Positions 2,983 to 39,948 of a DNA stretch of 39,948 nt are shown here, piece by piece. A model generated the notes under the pieces. The model was not told the origin of the DNA and ran no database searches. It saw nothing but the letters and a program-made list of their open reading frames with translations. Every line of letters starts with the position of its first letter. Position 1 is the first letter of the stretch. The DNA is from Escherichia phage TM1, in the sequence record OM908436.1. One strand, 5' to 3'. The translations under genes were made by a program, and so were the position numbers.

Positions 2983-3179
2983 TACAGTTTGCTCCCAAGA
3001 GTTGCTATATCCCAGACGTTCGCTAAATTACGCGCGAATCGCCCGTTAGGTTGGCGTACAGTCCAGCGGCCCAGACGTGCATAGTTGAATTTATAGACTT
3101 TACGTGCCTTGTTGATGTCTCTCATCAGCATGTAGGCGATAAGTCCATAGCCTATGGCTATCAATAGTTCGATACTCAT
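2982..3179 (-). CDS. Early small hydrophobic protein (65 aa), probable single transmembrane helix
   Basis: Hydrophobic N-terminus LLIAIGYGLIAYML; coupled to the downstream ORF. Confidence 0.4.
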   Translation of the reverse strand: MSIELLIAIGYGLIAYMLMRDINKARKVYKFNYARLGRWTVRQPNGRFARNLANVWDIATLGSKL

Positions 3180-3284
3180 AGTGATTTCCGTTTAATACAA
3201 TCGTATATCCCATAACCTATCATCCAGATAACTGGCGCTAGGCATACCAAATATCCCACACTCATAGTTAACTCCTATTAATGC

Positions 3285-3354: not shown

Positions 3355-3702
3355 TTACACTTCCACCGATACAGTGGTCATCTTGCTTACAGTCAGCCCA
3401 CCAGCAAGCTCAACCGCATAGCGTATCGCCTCCTCTTTGGATTTGAAGTCCTTTCCTGCAAGGTGGTAAATATCGCCTGTTATTACCTTAGAAGGCCTGC
3501 GACTCACCGCAATAGCGTTTTCCATGGCAAGCTCACCACGGCTATACTGAGTAAGCCAGCGCTTCACCGAACTCGTTCCCACCCCGAACTTTTGGGCGGT
3601 TGCAGTCACCCTATCCATAACTCCCTCAGGCAGAGAGGTGTAGTAGTTAACAACGTTGAGTTTAAATGCTACCGAGAATACATTGCGAGTTTTAGCAGTC
3701 AT
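3355..3702 (-). CDS. Early hypothetical protein (115 aa) with a possible helix-turn-helix segment
   Basis: ORF in the early region; the segment ATAQKFGVGTSSVKRWL resembles an HTH; no T7 counterpart recalled. Confidence 0.5.
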   Translation of the reverse strand: MTAKTRNVFSVAFKLNVVNYYTSLPEGVMDRVTATAQKFGVGTSSVKRWLTQYSRGELAMENAIAVSRRPSKVITGDIYHLAGKDFKSKEEAIRYAVELAGGLTVSKMTTVSVEV

Positions 3703-3725: not shown

Positions 3726-3776
3726 AAGTGGTAATCACTCAGGCCACCATGTAGATGACCTGTAGTTTAACACTCA
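3726..3776 (-). promoter_or_regulatory. Conserved early intergenic RNA hairpin element, copy C (candidate RNase III site)
   Basis: Transcript AGGUCAUC-loop-GGUGGCCU gives an 8-bp stem with two G-U pairs; flanked by the conserved CTGTAGTTTAACACT block. Confidence 0.45.
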
Positions 3777-4059
3777 GTATCCACCTGTCAGCGTTATGGT
3801 CAAGCTATGGTGATTAGCCACGTAGCAAGCCCCGCGCTTCATCATCTCGTAGCAACCATCGTAGAACGCCTGTTCACTGCTATAAGTTATCTGGTACATG
3901 TTTACTTGTCCTCAGCGTGTAAGCTGTCATACATGCGCTTACGACCCTCATAGACCGCTTTCAGGTGGCGCATAGCCTCATAGTGGTTTAACCGCCCGGT
4001 CTTGACCATAATCCGGGCGTTGGTGACATGGTGCTGGCAGAGACCATAAGTTACCATCA

Positions 4060-14200: not shown

Positions 14201-15165
14201 GTCAGCGGGTCTACACCCGAACCAATCACACCAGCAGCTAACTGAGCACCAGTCCCAGCCTTGGCCTTCTCTTGGTCCAACTTCTGGTTCTCAAGAGCCA
14301 AGTTAATAAGCTCGGTCAGGTTCTGAGGGGAGCCACCAGTGATGACCCCGTAATACTGAGGAAGAACTCCAGCGTTACGAATCTGGTCCAGCTCCTCACG
14401 AGACCACTTATGGTTGTTCCAGCGGGTCGGGTTAAACACATCGCCAATGACATCAAGTGAGTCCTCGGTCTGACCAGCGCGGATAGCCACGCCGACCATA
14501 GAGTTCTTCACTTCAGCTTCTGTAGCCTGGCCGAAACCGAACCACGTAGAGCGATCCTCTCGTTCCTGCATGGTCTCGCCAGCAGACTTATAGAACATCT
14601 CACCGAACGATTCGTTGGGAGCTTCAGGTGCTTGACCCTCAATGTTTAGACCAGCAGCGGTCGGAAGGTTCTCGCCCAGAGCTACTTTAGGTTTAGCCTT
14701 GAGTCCTTCCGTGAGTGCGTCAAATACGTTAGCGCTTACTGGTGGAGTCTTTGGGGTGATGCCCCCAGCACCACTTAAGGCGCGAGAGACTCCTAGCTTG
14801 TAGACCTCAGGGTCATACCGGGAACCAGTCTCATGGTAGCCGATAGCCTCAGACAGAGAGGCGAGGACATCAGGGTTCGTCAGGTCGATACTTTGTGTTG
14901 CTGGAATACCAGTCGCAGCCACAACAGAGTTGATGTAGGACTGAGTGTCGTTCTCATTAGGTGGTGCCCAGCGGTTGATAATCTTCTCGATAGAATCATA
15001 GCCCTGTCGACCATATGACATCAGGTTCTTAGCCAGAGCGCGTACACCGGAGTCGGGGGTGTCAAAAGTCACGAACGCCCCGTCATCACCCGTAGCCCCT
15101 TCCCACTGGTCCTTGGACACACGGATGTTCCCGATGTTGTTGTTTCTTATTCCACGTGCTGCCAT
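11269..15165 (-). CDS. gp16: Internal virion protein D with N-terminal lytic transglycosylase-like region (T7 gp16-like)
   Basis: 1298 aa versus 1318 in T7; position between gp15 and the tail fiber. Confidence 0.85.
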   Translation of the reverse strand: MAARGIRNNNIGNIRVSKDQWEGATGDDGAFVTFDTPDSGVRALAKNLMSYGRQGYDSIEKIINRWAPPNENDTQSYINSVVAATGIPATQSIDLTNPDVLASLSEAIGYHETGSRYDPEVYKLGVSRALSGAGGITPKTPPVSANVFDALTEGLKAKPKVALGENLPTAAGLNIEGQAPEAPNESFGEMFYKSAGETMQEREDRSTWFGFGQATEAEVKNSMVGVAIRAGQTEDSLDVIGDVFNPTRWNNHKWSREELDQIRNAGVLPQYYGVITGGSPQNLTELINLALENQKLDQEKAKAGTGAQLAAGVIGSGVDPLTYVPIAGQVGKGGKLVNKMFTVAAQSGALSGVSEMARTSVAGGDAHVAEAILGGALFGGGMTAIADGLGRALGRNTNEFAGPATRLEARETARNVDGQDLSRLPIQEGEQTFSHQGVKFADVPNEPGSVRLEDGSILIGENPLNPKTRKVFDEVIEPERAAAGVNLGGLTEIGLKLLRSENPEIRGVAADLVRSPTGMQSGASGKIGTTASDVFERLRAVDHRFYNDIDDAVTEALKDPYFQTAFWRDSGAFRQDIYQRVSMAIEDGSGNLKAELTPGELKVYDLLKNQFDAKREMMENPAMFGRPDAQSIFPGSRFKGTYVPHVYSNQMKELYIKELGSPEALQEAIKKSWLTSYASRPEVKKRVDEALLEADPTLTPEGLAAAVDKYANDKAYGISHTEQFERSSVMEENINGLVGLENNSFLEARNLFDSDMSIILPNGQTFSVNNLREWDMDKIVPAYNRRVNGDIAIMAGTGKTTKEMKDLVETMMNKAGDDGKLKGEVSTLRDTLKILTGRARRDGADDAAFATVMRTMTDLSFFAKNAYMGVQNLTEIGGMLARGNVRAMLHGVPIFRDLAFRNKKVGASEIKDLHNVIFGKELDDSIRPSKQDVIDRLRSYSALSKPAATALGSAKYYTGELAVRSPFTKVLNGTTNYLLDAGRQGFLSDIVEHSLTGSKRKFDDRWLKTAGISDEQWKGIKSLIRESVTRGPDGKYTIKDKKAFSQDPRAMDLWRMGDTIADETLLRPHKLSNMDAKAYGPLAKTVLQFKNFVIKSINGRTMRTFYNATKNNRAMDAALSTVMSMGLAGIYYMAQAHVKAYAMQDGRDREYLKQALDPTMIGYAALSRSSHLGGPLGVANILGGIAGYEDTKMLRSSILPRSPTEKPERAIAYGASTSDPVMNVVGNFLEQVPAFGYAANVGASAYNLAGYLKADTRVNERDYMTGMYNTFRELVPNDPITQKLLLGTFEEQGIHIKD

Positions 15166-15596
15166 GTTAATCTCCTCTTGATTCGACTAATAGTTACTGG
15201 TGAGATTCCTAAAATCCGTGCCAGTTCCACACCACTCTTCTCACTTGAACGGATAAACCTGACGTCATCTTCAGTAAGTACGCAGGTACTAATCTGAGAG
15301 CCTTTAGCTTGACGACCTCTCTTGGTCATATCCTCCATGTTGTCACGATGTGTCCCTAATACTAAATGTTTAGGGTTCACGCAATACCTGTTGTCGCATG
15401 TGTGACGAAGTACACTACCTTTCGGTATTGGACCATTCGCTAACTCATAGGCAACACGATGCGCTCCTACGGTCTTTCCGTCGACCCATATGTTTCCATA
15501 CCCACTGCTGTTCAATCCTCCAGTGAAGCGGATACAGCCAGTTTCTTCCGAAATAGAAAGACGTGCCAGTCTCTCACTGGCTGTCCCGTTCTTCAT
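15147..15596 (-). CDS. HNH homing endonuclease inserted between gp15 and gp16
   Basis: 149 aa; GYGNIWVDGKTVGAHRVAYELANGPIPKGSVLRHTCDNRYCVNPKHLVLGTHRDN is a typical HNH motif with conserved H/C/N positions; T7 has no gene here. Confidence 0.75.
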   Translation of the reverse strand: MKNGTASERLARLSISEETGCIRFTGGLNSSGYGNIWVDGKTVGAHRVAYELANGPIPKGSVLRHTCDNRYCVNPKHLVLGTHRDNMEDMTKRGRQAKGSQISTCVLTEDDVRFIRSSEKSGVELARILGISPVTISRIKRRLTWQHVE

Positions 15597-17892: not shown

Positions 17893-18480
17893 TTAGCTAT
17901 GACCTGTAGGTGTGCCTTTAGCAGCACTAATAGGTGCAGCACCGCCAGAGCTGGACGCTCCAGAGATTGACTTACCAGCGGCGTAACCTTGCATCCCGGC
18001 GCTAGCAACATTAAGTGCATGGGCCAGTGGGCTGGTCTTGATGATTTTACCTTGACCACGGATAGCAGACTTTGTGTTCTCAATGTTGGCGATACGGTTC
18101 CCGAAGATAGCCGCATAGTCTCGGTTGTAACTTTCGGTAATCCCTGCTCGCTCCTTGACTATATCTCCTTTGACCTGACGTTCAATCCTGTCCATAGAGT
18201 TACCTTCCAGACCTGACTCAGCCACTGCAGCTCTGACCATGCCCTGATTGCGTATACCATTGAGCGTGGTCTCTGTCAATTCAGCCATCTGCTGCTCCTT
18301 CAGGTCTCGCTCCTGCATTCTCAGGTTGGCGTCAGAGTAGTTCATCTGCTTAACCATTTCCTGAGCCTGTCGGTTCTGAGCGTCAATTGCTGCACCTTCG
18401 GCCTTTGCCTGCTGGGATGCGGACATAGTGGCCCCGGCTACAGCCATGATACCCATGCCGATACTTACGGGTTCACACAT
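17893..18480 (-). CDS. gp14: Internal virion protein B (T7 gp14-like)
   Basis: 195 aa; starts MC, glycine/alanine-rich N-terminus, SMDRIERQVKG matches T7 SMDRIKRVTEG. Confidence 0.8.
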   Translation of the reverse strand: MCEPVSIGMGIMAVAGATMSASQQAKAEGAAIDAQNRQAQEMVKQMNYSDANLRMQERDLKEQQMAELTETTLNGIRNQGMVRAAVAESGLEGNSMDRIERQVKGDIVKERAGITESYNRDYAAIFGNRIANIENTKSAIRGQGKIIKTSPLAHALNVASAGMQGYAAGKSISGASSSGGAAPISAAKGTPTGHS

Positions 18481-18935
18481 ACGTCCTCCTTAGAGATAGT
18501 GAATAACTGAAAACGCTCACCAGTTACCGGGCTGATAGTCCAATCATCATGGAACTTAGCCCCAAGCAACTTCAAGAATTTAATGTGAGACTTATTGCCT
18601 GACCACACGTAGTTCCAGATGGTCCCGTATTGGTCTAACATTAAGTCCCTGTACTCAGAGATACGCTTTATGAACTCTCGCTTCTCTTTAGGTCTCAGCT
18701 TGTGGACCAGACCAGAAGTCAAGAACCATACGTTATCCCCTTGGTTTCCACCATAGGCAAACACTTCGCCTACACCGTTCGTTAAAACCACAGATGACGG
18801 AGATAGGTGCTTAAGCAGTCTTTCAGAGATACCAACGGTTGACCCATAGTTTGCTTTGCACTCATTAACATCATCTGCTGAAAGATGCCACAGAAAGTAG
18901 TGGACATCCGGTTCCGTAGCCTTGCGAATATACAT
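18465..18935 (-). CDS. Protein at the gene 13 position (putative internal virion / assembly protein)
   Basis: 156 aa ORF between the phi13-like promoter and gp14; assignment by position only. Confidence 0.5.
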   Translation of the reverse strand: MYIRKATEPDVHYFLWHLSADDVNECKANYGSTVGISERLLKHLSPSSVVLTNGVGEVFAYGGNQGDNVWFLTSGLVHKLRPKEKREFIKRISEYRDLMLDQYGTIWNYVWSGNKSHIKFLKLLGAKFHDDWTISPVTGERFQLFTISKEDVCVNP

Positions 18936-18964: not shown

Positions 18965-18987
18965 AGTCCCTATAGTGATAGTTAAGG
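18965..18987 (-). promoter_or_regulatory. Phage-RNAP promoter (phi13-like), lying in the loop of a 12-bp perfect inverted repeat
   Basis: CCTTAACTATCACTATA/GGGACT; flanked by AAGGGCCTATAG (18955-18966) and CTATAGGCCCTT (18993-19004). Confidence 0.7.
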
Positions 18988-19011: not shown

Positions 19012-21369
19012 TTAGACGGAACGAGCTTTCTTAGCGTATGACGCCTCCCATCCACACCCAACGATTGACACTGGGGTAGGATAGTCGGACTCTAAGGTTA
19101 GACTCGTGGTCAATGCGTTACCATTCATAGCGAAGCGATACTGCCCGTCACCAATGTTTGTAGTCCCGATGGTTTGCTGCCCAAGGGTGTACCCGTTGAA
19201 TGTATTCACGAACTCCCTCGCACCATTTCTGACAATGAGTCTCAGAGCGCCAGTGTCCTTGTAGTTTACCCAAGCACGACGAAGCTGTAGACGGCCAGTG
19301 TCTTCAGACTGAGTGCCACTATCATCTTCAATCTTAATCAGGAACCGTGAGAACTTGTAGGACATCAGATAGGACCGTCCGATGAACACTGTGTGTCCTG
19401 ACCAATCTCCGTTGAGGTTAACCACAGTTGAGATTTCGGTCAATTCACCAAGGTCCACATAAGCACCCTGACTGTCAATCAGATAGTACCGACCGGGAGA
19501 CGGAGCGTTGCCGCCATAAGCAGCACCAATGTCAACCGTAGTCTTATATGTGTCAACATTATATGAGCCAATTGGAATTACCATAGACACCTTGGAGTCA
19601 ATGTGGAGTCTATATGGCTCTAACGGAAAGTCAGTTGCCTCCTTGATGAACTTAAGATGCTCAAGGTCCACGCCGCCTTGGTGCTGACGAACAATGAACA
19701 TGGTAGAGCCAATCGACGCAGACGCCAGAATCTTATCAGCTTTAGGGAACTCCCAGTGCGACCAAGAGGCTTGAAGCTGTACGCCGTCCTTAAACAAGAA
19801 CTTGTAGATGTAGATATGGTTGTATGCACCTGTAGAGTTGACGCAGATGTAGTTCTCAGTCCCTGTACCTTGAATATCGAACACCCCGTTAGGGATGTAG
19901 GACAATACGTGACCGGTTGTATCATCAGCATCCTTCACATCAGACACATCAGCTACAGCGAAGTATCGCTTAATGCTGGTGAATGACCCACGAGGAGCTG
20001 AGAAGAAGACTGAGCGTCCTACAGCGAACGGTCTGGCATTGTCGCCTAAGGCAAACTCTGAGCCTACATCAAGCTGGATAGACTTCGAGGTAAGGACCCC
20101 AGAGCTTGTCATCACGAACTGAACCTCATCCGACCAAAGTAGTAGCTGCTCGCTAAACGGAACGGCATACTTAAGGATTGAGATTCGAGGGTGACTTACA
20201 GCTACATCAATAGGGTCATCATCACCCAATGTCGCAACACTCTTAGGGAAGAACGAAAAGTAGCTGGCTGAACGGCTCATGATTACGTTCTCTCCTGACA
20301 AGAACCCCAGCCTATTCCTGTAGAAGAACACATCGTTAATCGTAGCATCCACGAAGCTAGGCATAGGGTTTGTGTCATCATTACCAGCACCACGATTAGA
20401 CCAGTCCAGAGTCTTGAACTCAAAGGAGCCGTCAGATTGTCTCACCAGAGCATGGGGCATTGTGGTGTTATCGAACCCAGTGACCACTCCCGGCTCTACT
20501 GTCTCCTTCCACGTCTTAGTGTTGGAGTCATACATCACGTAATATTCATCGGCGCTACTGTTGGTCTCACCTTGAATCTTAATGATGTACCCATTTGGAG
20601 CCGCAAGAGGCAACTTAGAGATTGTTTGCACCGTGTCGAGTACTGGGCTGATTAGTTGGTTAGCGTAGCCATCCTCCGTCTCCACTGAGTTAATGTCAGT
20701 CCCTTCAGGGGCAGTGATTAACAGGAATCCAGACCCAAGGTCGAACGTGAAGGTAGGGTAAGCAGCAACAAGAAGGTCTCTCAGAGCCGCACCGATAGCC
20801 TGAGCATCAACCTTAGGAGGGTCATTCTCTGCATCATTACCTGCTGGCAACTTATGCTCTACCTTAACGCCTCCATTGATTCCTACCTTAAGGGTGCGAC
20901 CGTACTGCCCACCACGCAGGTTAATTAAAGCTCGTGCTTTACGATTATAACCAGAGTGTGCCTTCTCGCTTCCACTTTTAACGACAACCTTACGGTTCAC
21001 GATGAACGTATAGTCTGCAACGGTAACGACACGGATGTCATCTCGCGGGTTGGACGACTTAACGTAGTCTACCGCACCGGACACTGAGTATTGATTACCA
21101 CTCAAGTCAACTACCTGAATGTTGGACCCGTTGAACACTATGTAATACTGCTCCTGCTCGTCACGGTTAATCAGGTGGAACTTAGGGTTACTCCCAACGT
21201 CGATGTTAAGACGTCTCTTGAAGACTGTAGGTGGTCGCTTCTGGAGGCCATCACTCTCTGATGACCAGCAGTTAATTTGCTCCTCGCCTTGGTCTGAGAA
21301 CCTCAGTATGTCTGGCTGCTGGCTAATGCCACCTTTAAGGTTCTTGATTGATTGAGTAATTAGTGGCAT
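19012..21369 (-). CDS. gp12: Tail tubular protein B (T7 gp12-like)
   Basis: 785 aa versus 794 in T7; position after gp11. Confidence 0.85.
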   Translation of the reverse strand: MPLITQSIKNLKGGISQQPDILRFSDQGEEQINCWSSESDGLQKRPPTVFKRRLNIDVGSNPKFHLINRDEQEQYYIVFNGSNIQVVDLSGNQYSVSGAVDYVKSSNPRDDIRVVTVADYTFIVNRKVVVKSGSEKAHSGYNRKARALINLRGGQYGRTLKVGINGGVKVEHKLPAGNDAENDPPKVDAQAIGAALRDLLVAAYPTFTFDLGSGFLLITAPEGTDINSVETEDGYANQLISPVLDTVQTISKLPLAAPNGYIIKIQGETNSSADEYYVMYDSNTKTWKETVEPGVVTGFDNTTMPHALVRQSDGSFEFKTLDWSNRGAGNDDTNPMPSFVDATINDVFFYRNRLGFLSGENVIMSRSASYFSFFPKSVATLGDDDPIDVAVSHPRISILKYAVPFSEQLLLWSDEVQFVMTSSGVLTSKSIQLDVGSEFALGDNARPFAVGRSVFFSAPRGSFTSIKRYFAVADVSDVKDADDTTGHVLSYIPNGVFDIQGTGTENYICVNSTGAYNHIYIYKFLFKDGVQLQASWSHWEFPKADKILASASIGSTMFIVRQHQGGVDLEHLKFIKEATDFPLEPYRLHIDSKVSMVIPIGSYNVDTYKTTVDIGAAYGGNAPSPGRYYLIDSQGAYVDLGELTEISTVVNLNGDWSGHTVFIGRSYLMSYKFSRFLIKIEDDSGTQSEDTGRLQLRRAWVNYKDTGALRLIVRNGAREFVNTFNGYTLGQQTIGTTNIGDGQYRFAMNGNALTTSLTLESDYPTPVSIVGCGWEASYAKKARSV

Positions 21370-21378
21370 AGGCCCTCC

Positions 21379-21606
21379 TTAAATCATACTCATTAGGACG
21401 TATCCCTCAGCGATGTCACCAACGTCAGCAATGTGGACAACCTTACGCGCTACCTGTTGTCCAGTATACCCGTTGTCCCACTCATTCAGGATAAGCCAAT
21501 CACCAACCTTAAAGTCCCTGTCGTTAAGTCTCAGCTCTGCTGTCTTTAGACCTAGCTGTACCGGACCAAAGTGCTGGCGGTGAATCTTCAGGTTGTGACT
21601 AGCCAT
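21379..21606 (-). CDS. ASCH / DUF3850-like small protein (75 aa) inserted between gp11 and gp12
   Basis: LKIHRQHFGPVQLGLKTAELRLNDRDFKVGDWLILNEWD...YTGQQV fits, from memory, the DUF3850 (ASCH/PUA-like) signature; start overlaps the gp11 stop; T7 has no gene here. Confidence 0.6.
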   Translation of the reverse strand: MASHNLKIHRQHFGPVQLGLKTAELRLNDRDFKVGDWLILNEWDNGYTGQQVARKVVHIADVGDIAEGYVLMSMI

Positions 21607-22172
21607 TAGTCCCTCCCGATGTCAGACATCATGTTGTAGCGACCAGTGTCCATCTCGTACTCCATCACCTGCTGGTAGAGTTCTGCTTCCTGCTCACGAA
21701 GATACAGTTCAGACTCTGGGCTACCGAAGAACTTAGCGTTGAACTCACGGCTTGCCTTGGTCACGATGTAGTCACGGAATACCACAGGCATCTCAGCGAA
21801 CGGCTTCATCTCCACCAGCTCGACTGTAATTGGACCAGTGAAGGTAGTGGACTGAGTGGACAGGTCGTAGAGATAGCCGCCCATGTTGCTGTAGTAACTG
21901 GTAGCACCGGAAGTCATGACTCGAAGGTAAGACGGCAGGAATCGAATCCTATTGTCTTGGACATCAGGTGTCAGGACAGCAGCTTCGTTGATGTTAAAGT
22001 TCCATCCCTTAGCTTGGACCTGACGATTGACACGATGCAGGATGCGTTGAGCATTCGAGACGTCAGCGTTACCATCGTCAAGCTGTAGGACTGCTGGTTC
22101 ACCGATAGCTGCTAACATATCGTTGATGGCGTCTAAGTCATCGTTAGCATTCAGTGGAATGTATTGAGCCAT
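21606..22172 (-). CDS. gp11: Tail tubular protein A (T7 gp11-like)
   Basis: 188 aa versus 196 in T7; first gene after the Tphi-like terminator. Confidence 0.85.
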   Translation of the reverse strand: MAQYIPLNANDDLDAINDMLAAIGEPAVLQLDDGNADVSNAQRILHRVNRQVQAKGWNFNINEAAVLTPDVQDNRIRFLPSYLRVMTSGATSYYSNMGGYLYDLSTQSTTFTGPITVELVEMKPFAEMPVVFRDYIVTKASREFNAKFFGSPESELYLREQEAELYQQVMEYEMDTGRYNMMSDIGRD

Positions 22173-22192
22173 AAGTCTCCTCTCACTTTAAG

Positions 22193-22233
22193 CAAAAAAA
22201 CCCCTCAAGCACCCGAAGGCACCCAAGGGGTTT
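22193..22233 (-). terminator. Tphi-like intrinsic terminator after the capsid gene
   Basis: Transcript ACCCCUUGGGUGCC-UUCG-GGUGCUUGAGGGG followed by UUUUUUU; about 13-bp stem including G-U pairs; resembles T7 Tphi CCCCTTGGGG...CTTGAGGGGTTTTTTG. Confidence 0.85.
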
Positions 22234-22236
22234 CAA

Positions 22237-23411
22237 TTAGTTGTTGGACTCAGCCAGTTTAGCGGCCCTGTTCGCAGCACGAGTACGCGCAGCTTTCTGT
22301 TGAGGAGTTAAAGTCTCCTCTTCAGGTGCAGCCGCTACTGTAGCGACGTTAGGTTGGCTAAAGGTGCTTACGCCGCTGGGCTGAAAACCAGTGCGCCAGC
22401 CGCTTCAGGACGCAGACCACCGTGACCCATAGCGTACTTACCAACAATCAGGTCACCCTGAGCATCGACGTCACGGTCACGTTCCAGCGCCAAGTCACGC
22501 AGCTTAACGGTACCCACAGCAGAACGGTGAGAGAACAGACCAACAACGTTGTCCAGAGCAACTTTAACGTCACCAGTAGCAGTAGCTGGGAAGGCGTGCT
22601 TCTGACCAGTCGCAATAGTGATACCATCATCACCACGAGTTTCACCAGCACCACCCTGAGTCAAGTGCGGAACTTCAACAACCACGAAGCCCATTACGTT
22701 ACGGATGTTACCAGTCTCTGGGTCAATCAGCGCAGCATAGTTAGCAGCGTTCGGCATCAGAGCAGCGAGTATTGCAGAGTAGTTGTCCGGCGTGGTGTAG
22801 AAGTAGCGGTCGCCAGCAGGAACGTAGTTGGAGGTCAGCTTCGCACGAGCAATTGTCAGTTGACCGATGATTGCTTCACCCAGTTTAGCCGGGGTGTCTA
22901 GGTCAGCTTTCTTGCCTACTTCAAGTACGGACGCAGTACCCAGACCAGCAATGTTCTCGTTGGATGCAGCCGGGAGGTTACACAGGATAGCCATTTCAGC
23001 CAGCACCGCACCATCAGCAGCGATAGCCAGAGCTTCGCCCAACTGGTTGGAATACTCGCCAGCCACGTCGTAGTGGTTCATCGCGTCTTCAATGTCGAAA
23101 ATCATCACATCGGCAGTCAGCAGACCATCAATGGTAATCACTTTCTCGGTATGTTTGATACCTTTACGCTTATCGGACAGTCGCTCACCCGGAGCCAGAT
23201 ACACACCGGAGGTGCGACCCATGACCGGGAACTGAGCAGACTTACCGTTCTGAATGGTACGGACAATATGCTTGTCGGCAGTTACAGAGCGGCGAGTGAA
23301 TGCGGTCAGGACTTCACCAGCAAAGACCTTCAGGAACAACGCCAGAGCGTCGGAACCAGATTTGCCTTTACCTTGGTCTGTACCAATTTTCTGACCCGGA
23401 ACGTTTGCCAT
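22237..23411 (-). CDS. gp10B: Minor capsid protein 10B, made by a -1 ribosomal frameshift near the end of 10A
   Basis: Slippery G GUU UUC at about 22384-22390 (rc), identical to the T7 gene 10 slippery site; the -1 frame stays open for about 50 codons to a TAA at 22237-22239, just before the terminator. Confidence 0.6.
22368..23411 (-). CDS. gp10A: Major capsid protein 10A
   Basis: 347 aa; LALFLKVFAGEVLTAF, HTEKVITIDGLLTADV, AILAALMPNAANYAALIDPE, RSAVGTVKLRDLALER and KYAMGHGGLRPEAAGA are near-identical to T7 gp10A; strong SD AGGAGA before the ATG. Confidence 0.95.
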   Translation of the reverse strand: MANVPGQKIGTDQGKGKSGSDALALFLKVFAGEVLTAFTRRSVTADKHIVRTIQNGKSAQFPVMGRTSGVYLAPGERLSDKRKGIKHTEKVITIDGLLTADVMIFDIEDAMNHYDVAGEYSNQLGEALAIAADGAVLAEMAILCNLPAASNENIAGLGTASVLEVGKKADLDTPAKLGEAIIGQLTIARAKLTSNYVPAGDRYFYTTPDNYSAILAALMPNAANYAALIDPETGNIRNVMGFVVVEVPHLTQGGAGETRGDDGITIATGQKHAFPATATGDVKVALDNVVGLFSHRSAVGTVKLRDLALERDRDVDAQGDLIVGKYAMGHGGLRPEAAGALVFSPAA

Positions 23412-23525: not shown

Positions 23526-23548
23526 TCTCCCTATAGTGATAGTTTAGT
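23526..23548 (-). promoter_or_regulatory. Phage-RNAP promoter upstream of the capsid gene (phi10-like); best consensus match
   Basis: ACTAAACTATCACTATA/GGGAGACC, about 115-nt leader to the gene 10 ATG. Confidence 0.85.
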
Positions 23549-29302: not shown

Positions 29303-29463
29303 TAGCCTTCTCCTTCTTCTTCGTTATGCTCTTTCAGAATTTCATGAATGTCTCGACTGCATGAACCACTGAGGTTTGGATTATAACCAGACTCCTCGTG
29401 TCCACACCACCAAGCTGACCGCATCAGGTCTTTGACCTCCTGCTCGCTATAAGTTTTAGCCAT
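29302..29463 (-). CDS. Small acidic protein (53 aa) between the HNH gene and gp5.5
   Basis: MAKTYSEQEVKDLMRSAWWCGHEESGYNPNLSGSCSRDIHEILKEHNEEEGEG; start overlaps the HNH stop and stop overlaps the gp5.5 start; hand-translated. Confidence 0.4.
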   Translation of the reverse strand: MAKTYSEQEVKDLMRSAWWCGHEESGYNPNLSGSCSRDIHEILKEHNEEEGEG

Positions 29464-29744
29464 TAGTGACACTCCTTCTTAACAAGTTTGCGCTCACGGT
29501 TCGTCTTAATGACGTGTTCGCGCTTTGGAATACACTGTAGGTGCTCTATGTTGCAGCACCCACGGTTCAAGCACAAATGGTCTATCTCGTAGCCATCTGG
29601 TATAGGTCCGCGCTTCTGCTCCCACACCCATCGGTGGAACATGAAGGCGAACTTGTTGCCCTTCCTGTAGCTTCCCATGGGGTACCTGAAGTACCCATCT
29701 TGGTTCCTCTTGTGGGACACGCAGACGATACATCCGGTAGGCAT
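29463..29744 (-). CDS. HNH endonuclease downstream of DNA polymerase (start uncertain; the longer ORF-track version would overlap the gp5 end)
   Basis: FHRWVWEQKRGPIPDGYEIDHLCLNRGCCNIEHLQCIPKREH is a typical HNH motif; Cys pair near the N-terminus. Confidence 0.65.
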   Translation of the reverse strand: MPTGCIVCVSHKRNQDGYFRYPMGSYRKGNKFAFMFHRWVWEQKRGPIPDGYEIDHLCLNRGCCNIEHLQCIPKREHVIKTNRERKLVKKECH

Positions 29745-29775
29745 GGTGTGGAAGCGTAGGGTCTTGGTTCGAGGG

Positions 29776-31947
29776 TCAGTGACACTCTTTCCACGTTGGC
29801 CCAATCTTACCCTCTGTATCAAGCTCACACTTGAAGTTATAAAAACGTCCGACCTCACGCATTGCTTCTTGTGCAATACGGACGACTTCTTCGGCAATCT
29901 CCTGAGTACGACACGCAATCTGCAATTCATCGTGAATCCAAGCCATTAGAGCAAAGTCACCATCCCAGCCATTACCGTAGCCAGCTTCCTCAAGTTTCTT
30001 CTCCGTCAGCACCATCCAGTGCTTACAGACAACCGCACCATCTCCTTGAAGTAGAGCGTTAAGTGCTGAGTGTGGCGACCGGATGTGAATGCGGCGACCA
30101 TCAAGTCCACGCAGCCAACGGCGTTTCCACTTAACGATGTTCTCTCCGTCCACCCACTTAGAGTCTGAGATTAACGTATTACTCACAGCTTCCCTGAGGT
30201 CCTTGATGGCTGGTGTACCCTCAATGAATTTCTTCATGAGAGCCGAACCTTCCTTCTTACCACCGCCGACTATCAGTCCAATCTTAGCGGCCCCTGCACC
30301 ATACAGGAACGCATAGATGAACGTCTTAGCGTTGTTACGGAAAGCCTCATGATCGTGGTTCGACTTATCGCGTGGGACGTTAGGTGCTAACCCAGCGTTG
30401 ACTGCGTTGGCCCAGTGGATGTCACCTTCGACCACAGTCTTCGCATAATCTCCACCATCAAACGGAGCTGCTCGGTTCCCCAGACAACGAAGCTCAAGAC
30501 CTGAAGCATCCACACCAACTTGAATCCAAGGGTCTGGCTTACCATCAGTCTTGTTCCAAGCTGCACCGAAAGCACCACGGCAAGTCTCACCATACGGAGC
30601 ACCGTTAGCAGGGACCTGAGCCATGTTTGGTGAACTATGAGTCGCACGTCCGGTTACTGCCCCGCATGGGTTGATTGAACCGTGCATACGTCCGTCTGGA
30701 CCTACAAGTTTCAACCATGCGTTCTTACCTTCAGCCGCCTGACCGATGCGCTTCTGGACTACCAGATACTCACGAACTAGCTCTACGCAAGCCTGAGCCT
30801 CTGCGTCTGGTAACTTAACGTGTTCTAACGTCTCGTCATCGACTACAGGTTTCCCGGTGTCAGTGAAGTCTACAGGCTCCCATCCACGCTCCATCAAGAC
30901 TTTCGCTAAGTGGTCTCCGCTTCCCGGATTAAACTCAACGTAAGTGATAGGTGTGAAAGGTGCTCCCTCCATCGTGTCTCGCGTATCGCGCTCACAAGGT
31001 TCAAGACCTAAGCGTTGAGCTTTGTTCTTCGGCTTCTTAAAGATGCCACCTATTTTAGGATACACGACTCGCGGATACTTCGGAAGGTCCTTGCCTGTCC
31101 GGGGGTGCTTGAAGAACTCCTTGCCTCCCTTTGGTGCGTACCAGCTACCGAAAGTCGAACGCAGCTTGTCCAGCAGCTCTGCACGTTTGACGGTGAGTTC
31201 ACGATATAAGCCTTCGACCATCTCTGTGTTCATCGGATAGCCGTTACGTTCCATCTTCGCACAGGTCCACGCAGCATCATGTTCCAGACGCAACGCATAA
31301 ATCTGGTCGAAAGCGAACTGTTCAGACTGGAAGTAATACTTGTCAGTCAGGAACTTCTTGAACAATGCCAGTGTGACCACAACGTCTTGAACGTTATAGT
31401 CCAGCATCTCCTGAGACGGGAACAACCATTCGTCCCCAGCCTTATATTCGATACCTTCAGCCTTGCACTTGGCAACGTAATCGTGTTTGTATTCACCTTT
31501 CATCTCACCAAGACGATAGCCCCAAGCCTCAAGAGACTGACGTCCCATCATCTTAGGTGGCAGACGGCCAGATTTCACCGCTCCCATGTCTGAGAACTTA
31601 ATGTTTGGATACATCAAGCGACCCAGCACCAAGGTATCAATCATCTTGTGTTTCGGGAAGTTAAAGCGCTTCCCAAAGTACAGACGTTTCAGCTTGTCAA
31701 TAGCCGGGACGTCGTAGTTGATACCGTTGTGGAATACCAGCATACCATAAGGTGATGCGGCAATCTCTTCCACTTTATGAACATACTCTTTGAAGCCACC
31801 GACGATACCGACCATCGGAGCTACCCCATACTTAAGGGTCTCATTCGACTCGGCGTTAATCAGGACCCCACAGTGAAACTGGGAGACTGTATCAAGGAGA
31901 CCGTTGGTCTCGATGTCAGAACCCCAGATACTCTTAAGGTCAAACAT
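29776..31947 (-). CDS. gp5: DNA polymerase (T7 gp5-like, family A, with 3-prime to 5-prime exonuclease domain); start at MFDLKSIW with SD GGAGGA
   Basis: DIETNGLL (exo motif), EAWGYRLGEMKGEYK, DYNVQDVVVT, GVDASGLELRCL, NAKTFIYAFLYGAG, WIHDELQ and the C-terminal H all align with T7 gp5; the ORF-track start at 31983 has no RBS. Confidence 0.92.
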   Translation of the reverse strand: MFDLKSIWGSDIETNGLLDTVSQFHCGVLINAESNETLKYGVAPMVGIVGGFKEYVHKVEEIAASPYGMLVFHNGINYDVPAIDKLKRLYFGKRFNFPKHKMIDTLVLGRLMYPNIKFSDMGAVKSGRLPPKMMGRQSLEAWGYRLGEMKGEYKHDYVAKCKAEGIEYKAGDEWLFPSQEMLDYNVQDVVVTLALFKKFLTDKYYFQSEQFAFDQIYALRLEHDAAWTCAKMERNGYPMNTEMVEGLYRELTVKRAELLDKLRSTFGSWYAPKGGKEFFKHPRTGKDLPKYPRVVYPKIGGIFKKPKNKAQRLGLEPCERDTRDTMEGAPFTPITYVEFNPGSGDHLAKVLMERGWEPVDFTDTGKPVVDDETLEHVKLPDAEAQACVELVREYLVVQKRIGQAAEGKNAWLKLVGPDGRMHGSINPCGAVTGRATHSSPNMAQVPANGAPYGETCRGAFGAAWNKTDGKPDPWIQVGVDASGLELRCLGNRAAPFDGGDYAKTVVEGDIHWANAVNAGLAPNVPRDKSNHDHEAFRNNAKTFIYAFLYGAGAAKIGLIVGGGKKEGSALMKKFIEGTPAIKDLREAVSNTLISDSKWVDGENIVKWKRRWLRGLDGRRIHIRSPHSALNALLQGDGAVVCKHWMVLTEKKLEEAGYGNGWDGDFALMAWIHDELQIACRTQEIAEEVVRIAQEAMREVGRFYNFKCELDTEGKIGPTWKECH

Positions 31948-37251: not shown

Positions 37252-38310
37252 TTAACTCTTAACGGTTGGATTGTCTTCCGTCCCGCGCCAGCACTTGAAG
37301 CTAGGGTGACGAAGGGAACCATCAGGGAAGCGCTCCATGAATAGGACCTCACACTGCCATCCTTCATAGGCGTGGTTGTCACCGTTTAGCTCCTGAGTCT
37401 TAACAGCTAGTGTAAACTCGTCCTTCTGTTCTTCAGTCAGACCACAGGCGTTAACCACCATGCCATCCTCAAGTAGCACCTCGAAGCCGATGACCTTACC
37501 TTCGTTCGCCTTACCAGGAGTCCCCCACACGAGGCCGCACACGGTCCCGTCGATGGTCTCCTCAGGCTTCATCTTCCACATGCCTGACTTCTTGCCACGC
37601 TTGTACTTACCCAGCGGGTCCTTGACTACCAGACCCTCGTGTCCTTCCAGACGCTTCTGTTCGTACAGGGAGTTGAGCGACTCAAGGTCATAGACCGTGT
37701 GTGACTCAGACAGAACCCAGTCGATTTCAGGGAAGTATTTCTGGAGGAGAGGGACGATAGCTTCGGCCTTCAGGCGTGTGACGCTATGGATAGGACCTTC
37801 GGCTTTCGGGTCATTGATGATGTTAAGGTCCACGATACCATAGACGACTACCTTGATGTTCCGTGTTGCCAGCCAGAATGGGACTTTAGTTCCTCTGCCG
37901 GGATAGCACTCAGCAAAATCCTCGTTGCTTGGCTTCAGCCACTTCGTTCTTATGAGACCTGAAGACGTATTGAAGTCCACTCCTTTTACCATGACCTCAC
38001 CATCAATCATCAGGCCCGTACCTTCGTAGCCAGCCTGTTTAAGGAACCATCGCCAGTCACTAGCCCTTTGCTGATCTTCAACGATGTTGTCGATGTTGGT
38101 CAGGACTGATAGCCACTCAAGTGCTGGAAGAGGTTTAGACTCACGGCTCAACCATTGAGTCTCGCCTGTTGGGAAGACTGGGAGGTTCAACCGGACACCA
38201 TCGTACTTCACTTCAGCTTCCAGCGACCCAGCTGCCTCCAAAGCCTTCTTAACTCCAGACTCAGAGTAGTCTACAGCGCGGTGCGGGTTAGTTTTAATAG
38301 TCGTAGTCAT
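37252..38310 (-). CDS. gp1.3: ATP-dependent DNA ligase (T7 gp1.3-like)
   Basis: 352 aa versus 359 in T7; N-terminal IKTNP and adenylation motif KYDG. Confidence 0.88.
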   Translation of the reverse strand: MTTTIKTNPHRAVDYSESGVKKALEAAGSLEAEVKYDGVRLNLPVFPTGETQWLSRESKPLPALEWLSVLTNIDNIVEDQQRASDWRWFLKQAGYEGTGLMIDGEVMVKGVDFNTSSGLIRTKWLKPSNEDFAECYPGRGTKVPFWLATRNIKVVVYGIVDLNIINDPKAEGPIHSVTRLKAEAIVPLLQKYFPEIDWVLSESHTVYDLESLNSLYEQKRLEGHEGLVVKDPLGKYKRGKKSGMWKMKPEETIDGTVCGLVWGTPGKANEGKVIGFEVLLEDGMVVNACGLTEEQKDEFTLAVKTQELNGDNHAYEGWQCEVLFMERFPDGSLRHPSFKCWRGTEDNPTVKS

Positions 38311-38837: not shown

Positions 38838-38856
38838 CCTATAGTGATAGTTTAGA
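38834..38856 (-). promoter_or_regulatory. Phage-RNAP promoter (phi1.1-like)
   Basis: TCTAAACTATCACTATA/GGATTA; overlaps the stop of the 157-aa ORF. Confidence 0.65.
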
Positions 38857-39325
38857 TGACGATGCGAGGCCTTACCTGCATGACTGCCTGAATCGCTCGC
38901 TCACGTTCTGCCTCCTCGCCGTAGACTTGCATCAGCTCGTAGTCATACTGGATGCGACCGTCGATGTCTCCGAGTCGGTACTCGAAGTCCTTAGAAGACC
39001 CGTCTGTGTGATACTGGTGGATGGTAATCGTCCGGTCGTCACGCTTAGTCACCTCGAAGTAGTGAACCACCTTTCCACACTTTACAAGGCCTATCTTGAA
39101 CTCAGTTGGCTGATACTTACCATCGAACAGTGCCTTGAACTTGATGCCGACCATACGCTTGATGGTTACAGCCGCTGGTGGCGCTAGGCGCTTACGCTCT
39201 GACTGGTTAAGCTTATCTCGAAGTCTTTGGTGCTCCCTGTTTGCCATCTCAAGGTTGGTGTCCTGCTTCTTAACTAACTTTTCCAGTTCTGCGATACGTG
39301 CTTTAAGTTTTGACTTACCGAACAT
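38852..39325 (-). CDS. Hypothetical protein (157 aa) with N-terminal coiled-coil-like region, between RNAP and gp1.1
   Basis: Heptad-like, charged N-terminus KLKARIAELEKLVKKQDTNLEMANREHQRLRDKL; T7 has no gene of this size here. Confidence 0.5.
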   Translation of the reverse strand: MFGKSKLKARIAELEKLVKKQDTNLEMANREHQRLRDKLNQSERKRLAPPAAVTIKRMVGIKFKALFDGKYQPTEFKIGLVKCGKVVHYFEVTKRDDRTITIHQYHTDGSSKDFEYRLGDIDGRIQYDYELMQVYGEEAERERAIQAVMQVRPRIVI

Positions 39326-39403
39326 AGGGTTAACCTCTTCTGCGTTGGACTAAAGTGAATACTGCTAGTGCTCCCAGCCACAAGGCCAGTAACTGTAGGT
39401 GTG

Positions 39404-39619
39404 TCATTTGGTCTGCTCCAGCTTGGACACTACGTCTTTCAGGTATTTCTCGTGGCTGGATTCCACAAGATAGACGAGGGTCTTGAATGGGACGTTAAGC
39501 TGCTTTGACATCTCGGTAGGAATGACCGTGGTCTTCACCAGACCCTTGCCGTTGTGTTCTGTTACGGTCACGATTTGAGTCCCACCCTTTACGCCAGCCT
39601 GCTTGTGTGCAAATTTCAT
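39404..39619 (-). CDS. Hypothetical protein (71 aa) immediately downstream of the RNAP gene
   Basis: ORF starting 13 nt after the RNAP stop; no recognised motif. Confidence 0.45.
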   Translation of the reverse strand: MKFAHKQAGVKGGTQIVTVTEHNGKGLVKTTVIPTEMSKQLNVPFKTLVYLVESSHEKYLKDVVSKLEQTK

Positions 39620-39631
39620 AACTCTCTCCTG

Positions 39632-39948
39632 TTAAGCGAATGCAAAGTCTGAAGACAAGATGTCTTCGATATTCAGTTTACCTTTCTTCGGAAGCTCAGG
39701 CAATTTGTCGCGCTGGCTCTCGTGGAGCTGGTATTCAAACTGCTCGTAGAAGTCAAGCAGCACATCGTTATCGCGGTAGGTCTCTACCATCGTCTCACGG
39801 ACGCCACGGAACAGATACTCAGCGTCAGCCGGGATGGTCCCGAAGCTATCGTGAATCACTGCGAATGACATCACGCCATATTTGCGGTGCGTGTGGACTA
39901 CAGTCTTGCGGAGGTGGCTACCATCTTGTGAGTGGACGAAGTTCGGGC
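39632..39948 (-). CDS. gp1: T7-type RNA polymerase, C-terminal part (stop codon 39632-39634); same gene as 1-2492
   Basis: HDSFGTIPADAEYLFRGVRETMVETY...LHESQRDKLPELPKKGKLNIEDILSSDFAFA matches the T7 RNAP C-terminus HDSFGTIPADAANLFKAVRETMVDTY...LRDILESDFAFA. Confidence 0.92.
   Translation of the reverse strand, partial: PNFVHSQDGSHLRKTVVHTHRKYGVMSFAVIHDSFGTIPADAEYLFRGVRETMVETYRDNDVLLDFYEQFEYQLHESQRDKLPELPKKGKLNIEDILSSDFAFA
39822..39948. repeat. Exact duplicate of window bases 1-127 (assembly overlap)
   Basis: See feature at 1-127. Confidence 0.8.

Follow-up and report, generated by a model that had tools for sequence, protein, structure and literature searches.

A small open reading frame (ORF) between the tail genes 11 and 12 of Escherichia phage TM1 encodes, as judged by profile searches and fold prediction, a member of the DUF3850 family and of the ASCH superfamily. 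The DNA analysed is a stretch of 39,948 nucleotides from sequence record OM908436.1, which is called the window below, and the ORF is 75 codons long, with a product of 8.5 kDa. Its substitution pattern and its distribution among relatives indicate that it is a genuine gene under purifying selection, which is nevertheless optional in the genus Kayfunavirus and has been lost or disrupted repeatedly. Our best guess for the product is a minimal ASCH enzyme or a reader of N4-modified cytidine in RNA.

The original prediction had placed the protein in the DUF3850/ASCH (PUA-like) family, and a hidden Markov model search bore this out, with both Pfam profiles scoring above their cutoffs. DUF3850 (PF12961) was matched with 70.1 bits against a gathering threshold of 22.9 (E-value 1.9e-19), residues 4–73 aligning to positions 2–76 of the 77 in the profile, and ASCH (PF04266) was matched with 26.2 bits against a threshold of 21.2 (E-value 1.4e-5). 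No nuclease domain (HNH, GIY-YIG, LAGLIDADG or Endo VII) was found in the ORF product, for which Pfam shows DUF3850/ASCH alone. The protein also matches PHROG 986 (E-value 2.8e-35), which is labelled RNA-binding. An exhaustive profile search of public genomes and metagenomes returned 16,103 representative clusters with E-values of at most 1e-3, and 5,438 when the limit was 1e-10. The window protein and 149 of the best-scoring representatives, mutually less than 50% identical, were combined into a 150-sequence alignment, and 116 of these 150 relatives match the ASCH profile too.

The fold pointed in the same direction. The sole sequence match of the window protein in the PDB is 3IUW (E-value 1.2e-10), which is also the only entry reached by the family profile (E-value 7.9e-27). 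It is the single DUF3850 structure, obtained by structural genomics from an 83-amino-acid 'activating signal cointegrator' of Enterococcus faecalis V583 (NP_814290), and differs from the window protein in being encoded by a bacterial genome. The fold of the window protein, modelled with AlphaFold2 from the 150-sequence alignment (an earlier model from 12 sequences was mediocre, with a pLDDT confidence score of 76.6, and 60 in the motif region), agrees with 3IUW and is a predicted PUA-like beta-barrel nearest to solved ASCH domains. After 3IUW, the fold matches were ASCH proteins only, namely PH0355 (score 8.9), YqfB (9KYF, 8.3), PF0470 (7.9), a Lactobacillus ASCH protein (7.7) and a Zymomonas ASCH protein (6.9). 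Furthermore, the K-x-x-E-x-R-x-x-D-R motif of DUF3850 is present in the window protein: five residues (K21, E24, R26, D29 and R30) are invariant in the 150 divergent representatives, and all five are intact in the window allele. The segment G19-L-K21-T-A-E24-L-R26 fits the ASCH octapeptide GxKxxExR and aligns in register with G19/K21/T24/R26 of YqfB. Together, these data establish membership of the window protein in both DUF3850 and the ASCH superfamily.

With regard to function, we tentatively propose, as a plausible reading that falls somewhat short of probable, a stand-alone minimal ASCH/DUF3850 accessory protein that binds a cytidine-type base and most likely hydrolyses its N4-acyl group. 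Binding of the base, whether free or flipped out of RNA, would involve the PUA-like pocket together with the invariant Lys21-Glu24(-Arg26) 'GKER' octapeptide, and the N4-acyl group would most likely be removed by the N4-acetylcytidine (ac4C) amidohydrolase or 'eraser' chemistry of YqfB, TthASCH, EOLA1 and TRIP4. The targets may be host tRNA/RNA or nucleosides set free late in infection, and the advantage for the phage would depend on the host or the environment instead of being essential. In the E. coli ac4C amidohydrolase YqfB, a 'GKTR' ASCH protein, K21, T24 and R26 are essential, whereas the window protein carries the family-invariant Glu in place of Thr at position 24. The octapeptide variant with Lys, Glu and Arg is common instead to the window protein and the 'GKER' ASCH proteins (Thermus TthASCH, 2DP9; human EOLA1; the TRIP4 domain), which are of the same fold class; their octapeptide Lys and Glu are essential, and this dyad of the tRNA ac4C deacetylases is present in the window protein as K21 and E24. 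The 'GKER' proteins have 110–160 amino acids or more, with extra elements, and none is a DUF3850 or phage protein. Their activity is reported in a 2026 preprint (doi 10.64898/2026.02.27.708502), in which 19 of 19 ASCH proteins assayed stripped ac4C from tRNA in vitro.

The domains to which DUF3850 is fused were also considered. Among the 150 diverse DUF3850 proteins, 12 are fused to DUF551 (phage-associated, function unassigned), and single fusions were found to a dATP/dGTP pyrophosphohydrolase and to LexA-type or helix-turn-helix DNA-binding domains; many members of 150–400 amino acids bear extensions with no Pfam match. In addition, prophage proteins in which DUF3850 is joined to a ParB-CTPase fold have been described (PNAS 2025, doi 10.1073/pnas.2527592122). 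They share with the window protein a DUF3850 domain and an enrichment in phages, and the fused ParB fold binds CTP; unlike them, the window protein is a bare DUF3850 domain, with neither a ParB fold nor a parA neighbour. The pyrophosphohydrolase and the CTP-binding ParB fold among the partners suggest a nucleotide or base chemistry.

A number of points weigh against the proposed deacylase. E. coli has one known ac4C site (C34 of tRNA-Met, TmcA) as well as its own YqfB, so that it is not obvious what a lytic phage would gain. YqfB has 103 amino acids, 28 more than the window protein, and sequence comparison showed that the latter lacks not only Thr24 but also the C-terminal helical segment of YqfB with His70, Glu74 and Tyr89, two points on which it departs from the YqfB enzyme type; between the last two strands, the window protein has 'GDIAE' and YqfB about 30 residues. 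The hhalign comparison of DUF3850 with YqfB is weak (probability 19%) and the PDB profile search reaches 3IUW only, so what connects DUF3850 with the ASCH enzymes is the Pfam ASCH model together with fold and motif. Two 'GKER'-type proteins, ZmASCH and TRIP4, do not hydrolyse free ac4C, and deacetylase chemistry is an extrapolation here because none of the 19 assayed ASCH proteins is a DUF3850 or phage protein; the literature searches turned up no experimental work on a DUF3850 protein. Late expression behind the Tphi-type terminator (see below) would leave little time for remodelling host RNA. Finally, the frequent loss of the gene and a fast-evolving Citrobacter phage CR44b allele that lacks D29 and R30 show that the activity is often dispensable. 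We consider it unlikely that the DUF3850 proteins as a whole are the smallest working ASCH enzymes, erasing N4-acetyl or N4-acyl groups from cytidine of host tRNA/RNA or of the nucleotide pool. If this were true, the phage-enriched family would represent a widespread viral 'epitranscriptome eraser', of which the Kayfunavirus copy is delivered late from the tail operon.

The main rival, which we regard as possible but doubtful, is a non-catalytic reader or binder, in which the PUA-like barrel would hold RNA, single-stranded DNA or a (modified) base and thereby act, late in infection, on RNA stability, translation or DNA processing. The SRA, EVE and YTH domains of the PUA superfamily are mostly base-flipping readers and ASCH itself has been proposed as a reader of methylated bases, although the modified-base readers are structurally less similar to the window protein than ASCH proteins are and do not have GxKxxExR. 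ZmASCH and TRIP4, which fail on free ac4C, do bind nucleic acids, and the helix that holds the substrate in YqfB is absent from DUF3850. However, the absolute invariance of Lys, Glu and Arg in the octapeptide is more typical of catalysis, as is the tRNA deacetylase activity of every ASCH protein assayed, and a single domain of 75 residues offers little surface for sequence-specific binding. The label of PHROG 986 would favour a binder, but it is a transferred prediction. The genomic context of the family elsewhere also speaks for this rival. Outside Kayfunavirus, DUF3850 occurs in 560 phage records, including T1-like phages, Kagunavirus, P2-like phages, Enterococcus myoviruses, Gordonia phages and cyanophages; the DS8 homolog sits between helicase and primase, and that of the T1-like phage JMPW1 within an early small-gene block. 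A scan of 108 immediate neighbours at 67 unrelated viral loci found that the named PHROGs all belong to replication, recombination or modification (primase, D5-like, helicase, methyltransferase, NinG/Rap, HNH and exonuclease); neither structural genes nor a recurrent partner gene appeared among these flanking ORFs.

The window genome is T7-like (Kayfunavirus), with all genes on the minus strand, and its 19.0–23.5 kb region is about 95% identical to Kayfunavirus phages (Bas105, EcoDS1 and many Escherichia and Salmonella isolates). The ORF was found exactly where it had been predicted, between gp11 and gp12. The features of the locus are as follows.

21379–21606, minus strand: the 75-amino-acid ORF (ATG start, from the ORF listing), a minimal ASCH-superfamily/DUF3850 protein, equivalent to CR44b 'gene 11.05' and EcoDS1 AS9_0040
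21606–22172, minus strand: gene 11, tail tubular protein A (gatekeeper/adaptor), 188 amino acids; Pfam Tube, E-value 5e-46
19012–21369, minus strand: gene 12, tail tubular protein B (nozzle), 785 amino acids; Pfam Phage_nozzle, E-value 0, 1095 bits
21604–21608, minus strand: TAATG overlap of the gp11 stop and the ORF start with one base in common, read from the sequence; identical in 15 of 15 filled loci
21612–21617, minus strand: Shine-Dalgarno (SD) sequence GGGAGG of the ORF, formed by the gp11 Gly-Arg codons (GGG AGG) before the final Asp codon
21370–21378, minus strand: 9-nucleotide spacer GGAGGGCCT with the gp12 SD; spacer and ORF make up the 237-nucleotide indel
21517–21552, minus strand: codons G19-L-K21-T-A-E24-L-R26-L-N28-D29-R30, the ASCH octapeptide GxKxxExR followed by the DUF3850-specific NDR
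22197–22234, minus strand: Tphi-type intrinsic terminator between genes 10 and 11 (17-bp stem and U-run), near-identical to the annotated EcoDS1 terminator, with one extra T in the T-run of the window
23530–23544, minus strand: phi10-equivalent promoter core, the nearest upstream, an exact AACTATCACTATAGG
18969–18983, minus strand: phi13-equivalent promoter core just downstream of gene 12, where the 11-ORF-12 read-through unit ends

The junction of gp11 and the ORF reads ...GGGAGGGAC-TAATG-GCT, gp11 ending in GGG AGG GAC. The gp11 stop TAA (21606–21608) and the ORF ATG (21604–21606) share one base, so the overlap noted earlier is real, and an SD-like GGGAG(G/A)GACTAATG upstream of the ATG is kept in all 15 filled loci examined. 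Given the TAATG overlap and the SD within the last gp11 codons, the ORF is translationally coupled to gp11. At the other end, the ORF stop TAA (21379–21381) is followed by GGAGGGCCT and then by the gp12 ATG at 21369. A frameshift fusion of gp11 and the ORF, by analogy with gene 10A/10B, was rejected: a TGA interrupts the ORF frame five codons before its ATG, and an X_XXY_YYZ heptamer is absent. The Kayfunavirus orthologs (CR44b YP_009007176, EcoDS1 YP_002003774, EV136_1 QWT56378, Bas105 and ST31) likewise occupy the 11–12 position, with TAATG coupling and a near-identical protein (for the CR44b allele, see below); the window protein is 100% identical in ST31, EPr2, Pkp-1, yong1 and EcoDS1.

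Promoter cores of the phage RNA polymerase (AACTATCACTATAGG) occur 11 times in the window, where chance alone would give 0.04, and the 11-ORF-12 unit lies downstream of the strong Tphi-type terminator with no promoter of its own. Transcription by read-through of Tphi is established for genes 11 and 12 of T7. Since the 11-ORF-12 transcripts depend on such read-through, expression of the ORF is late and probably moderate rather than high. The earlier expectation of late, high-level expression thus holds for the timing, while the high level is doubtful.

We compared this junction with those of related phages. In T7, as stated in the original prediction, no gene lies between genes 11 and 12, where there is only a 23-nucleotide non-coding gap; K1F, SH4 and Dev2 lack the gene as well, and the description of the ORF as inserted is matched by an indel of exactly 237 nucleotides (the ORF and the 9-nucleotide spacer) between filled sites and the empty site of K1F. 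In K1F, the type species, the gene 12 ATG directly overlaps the gene 11 stop, and this empty site is present in at least 23 records (among the top 60 matches to a probe from the empty junction). Another empty site, in which gp11 ends ...GGT CGA GAC TAA and is followed by an 11-nucleotide SD spacer and gp12, is present in at least 24 records, including SH3, SH4, SH5, Dev2, SFPH2, GW1 and Ro45lw. About 220 records contain both flanks and 154 records carry an allele at least 80% identical, from which roughly three quarters of Kayfunavirus records are filled and at least a fifth empty. Synteny in the relatives therefore shows a gene that is present in the majority, optional, and without the pattern of a conserved virion component. 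Two of the records found are Kayfunavirus-like although they carry Gram-positive host names: MT350292 ('Enterococcus phage EFA-1') shows about 95% DNA identity over the 4.5-kb region of the window, and OR786095 ('Staphylococcus phage MBBL139') has a DUF3850 protein 84% identical, its gene at the 11–12 junction and about 89% junction DNA identity. Both host labels look unreliable.

The empty sites, at 3750–3790 of the fetched K1F locus and 3550–3600 of the fetched SH4 locus (window 21604–21620), differ in what they retain. Filled sites and the K1F site both end gp11 with GGG-AGG-GAC-TAATG, and as these SD-creating codons are kept in K1F with the ORF gone, its junction looks like a precise secondary deletion that left a scar. 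The T7-like spacer of the SH4 type is identical to the spacer after the ORF in EV136_1, and GGT-CGA is synonymous to GGG-AGG; this sequence fits either an unfilled ancestral arrangement or an independent resolution. Homing endonucleases have also visited the junction. Hafnia phage yong1 (MK610268) carries a 146-amino-acid endonuclease VII/HNH-type homing gene between the ORF and gene 12 (2546–2986 of the fetched locus, minus strand). In LI10P1 (OZ035801; 380–532 of the fetched locus, plus strand), codon 5 of the ORF is joined at a CACAACC microhomology to the last ~45 codons of the endonuclease, and the 128-nucleotide insert reads through into the gene 12 start; both genes were destroyed by the deletion, and the fusion remnant still matches Pfam Endonuclease_7 (E-value 5.4e-14, profile positions 43–81 of 82). 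The ORF itself was rejected as a homing-endonuclease or self-mobile cassette, for it encodes no nuclease and the endonuclease at the yong1 junction is a separate gene. Overall, the comparison indicates that the gene is optional in Kayfunavirus and has repeatedly been lost or disrupted.

A role in counter-defence or host takeover would explain this patchy presence. The protein would then sequester or destroy a cytidine-based immune signal or modified nucleotide, or neutralise a modification-dependent nuclease. Near-identical flanks with variable presence (TH20 has the gene and LNA3 does not, yet each matches the K1F junction at 98.8% identity) and the wide spread of the family in phages are consistent with such a role, and the paper on the ParB-fold proteins (doi 10.1073/pnas.2527592122) speculates about anti-defence roles for phage fusions including DUF3850. 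However, neutral loss through microhomology deletion also accounts for presence and absence. In addition, searches of PADLOC (best E-value 0.007, 14 bits) and NCBIfam gave no significant match, a literature link to defence was not found (searches that included the HIDEN-SEQ preprint and the BASEL paper yielded no mention of the gene), and the 11–12 unit of a T7-type phage enters and is expressed late, which is poor timing against most defences. We consider this role quite unlikely.

The evidence for selection bears on another alternative, i.e. that the ORF is a passenger with no current function for the phage, kept by its embedding (SD and overlap) in an essential operon and in the course of being lost. 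At least two losses that took different courses, one leaving the K1F scar and the other the SH4-type site, and the destruction of the LI10P1 copy by homing-endonuclease invasion and deletion agree with this. So does CR44b (NC_023576), whose intact 'gene 11.05' (22053–22277) is only 45% identical to the window protein, as compared with 80% for gp11 and 77% for gp12. Its dN (nonsynonymous divergence) is 0.52 against 0.16 for equally distant alleles, family-invariant residues are lost (E24D; N28-D29-R30 replaced by S-I-P), and its DUF3850 score (26.6 bits) barely passes the Pfam cutoff, which indicates relaxed or changed constraint in this lineage. Alleles altered at or beside family-invariant residues were also seen in two metagenomic Kayfunavirus contigs of IMG/VR, R30L (locus 3001–3228) and D31G (locus 589–816), which reflect either loss of function in nature or errors in sequencing. 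On the contrary, the pooled ratio of nonsynonymous to synonymous polymorphism (pN/pS) over 15 Kayfunavirus alleles is 0.18 for the ORF, as low as for the essential gene 12 (0.18; gene 11, 0.07), and the comparison with EV136_1, the most divergent allele of the same type, gave a dN of 0.16 and an omega of about 0.10 at a saturated synonymous divergence (dS) of 1.66. Over about 140 records, the proteins are 96–100% identical despite DNA differences of about 5% or more in this region, and the window allele retains all five family-invariant residues. The passenger explanation is thus very unlikely. Because the Pfam and PHROG matches, the pN/pS of 0.18, the omega of about 0.10 at saturated dS and the SD kept in 15 of 15 loci coincide, the ORF is a genuine gene under purifying selection, with selective upkeep in most lineages and yet clear dispensability.

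The 11–12 position might suggest a role in tail assembly or as a minor virion protein, but this is highly improbable: T7, K1F, SH3, SH4, SH5, Dev2, SFPH2, GW1 and many others build the same tail without the gene, siphovirus, myovirus and prophage homologs lie in replication or early modules, the best fold matches are ASCH enzymes and not virion proteins, fusion to gp11 by frameshifting is impossible (the upstream TGA, no slippery site), and the mass-spectrometry notes in the CR44b GenBank record cover 7.3, 8, 9, 10A, 11, 12, 14, 15, 16, 17 and 17.01 and none concerns 11.05, although a small protein can easily escape detection and the methods have not been published. A virion component was rejected on this distribution and on these notes, the latter being negative evidence only. 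The published SH3/SH4 virion proteome is uninformative on the ORF product, as both phages lack the gene. On present evidence the product is non-structural, in line with the earlier impression of a non-structural-looking gene, since it is dispensable in the genus, its homologs elsewhere lie among replication genes and the CR44b notes include gp11 and gp12 only at this locus. A non-catalytic reader or binder is more likely than any of the anti-defence, passenger and virion roles.

The feature has been annotated before, as 'RNA-binding protein' in RefSeq, 'DUF3850 domain-containing protein' in GenBank and 'gene 11.05' in CR44b (2014). A 'gene 11.5' in the literature was rejected as the same gene, the sole match being an unrelated K1E/SP6-type gene. 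The gene had been called unusual for a tail operon; with about three quarters of Kayfunavirus records carrying it, already annotated, it is the majority state and not an oddity. What is added here is the argument from the catalytic motif, the combination of dispensability with purifying selection, and the history of gain and loss at the junction. For this window itself little is at stake, as an identical protein has already been deposited publicly. Of broader interest is the DUF3850 family (about 16,000 clusters, many of them phage), for which the Lys21-Glu24 dyad and N4-acylcytidine chemistry provide a sharp and inexpensive hypothesis. Near-isogenic Kayfunavirus isolates with and without the gene, including the BASEL phage Bas105 as a carrier, constitute a natural test system. 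The junction also illustrates how T7-type phages gain and re-wire small genes, by synonymous recoding of the last gp11 codons into an SD, as well as the routes of loss, namely precise deletion, homing-endonuclease invasion and microhomology deletion.

Several other observations were made in the window. Two HNH_3 homing-endonuclease genes on the minus strand, at 15147–15596 and 29463–29930 (Pfam E-values 3.8e-15 and 2.4e-19), are wedged among core genes: one separates the ORFs that occupy the positions of genes 15 and 16 (compare CR44b gene 7.7C), the other lies just upstream of a large ORF at the DNA-polymerase position, the flanking genes being named by position and size. By these matches, the window genome is actively colonised by homing endonucleases, though not at the 11–12 junction. 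Genes 13 (18465–18935) and 14 (17893–18480), also on the minus strand, overlap directly with no 'gene 13.5 endonuclease VII' between them, unlike in EcoDS1; gene 13.5 is, from this comparison, another presence/absence polymorphism of a small non-structural gene in the structural region. The ORF listing of the window contains no long ORF for the phage RNA polymerase, whereas a gene 1.05-like ORF (38852–39325) and an ORF assigned to ligase by position (37252–38310) are present. The polymerase gene probably runs across the window ends (1–2566 and 39326–39948), in which case the contig would be a circularly permuted assembly, and the genome itself linear and terminally repeated.

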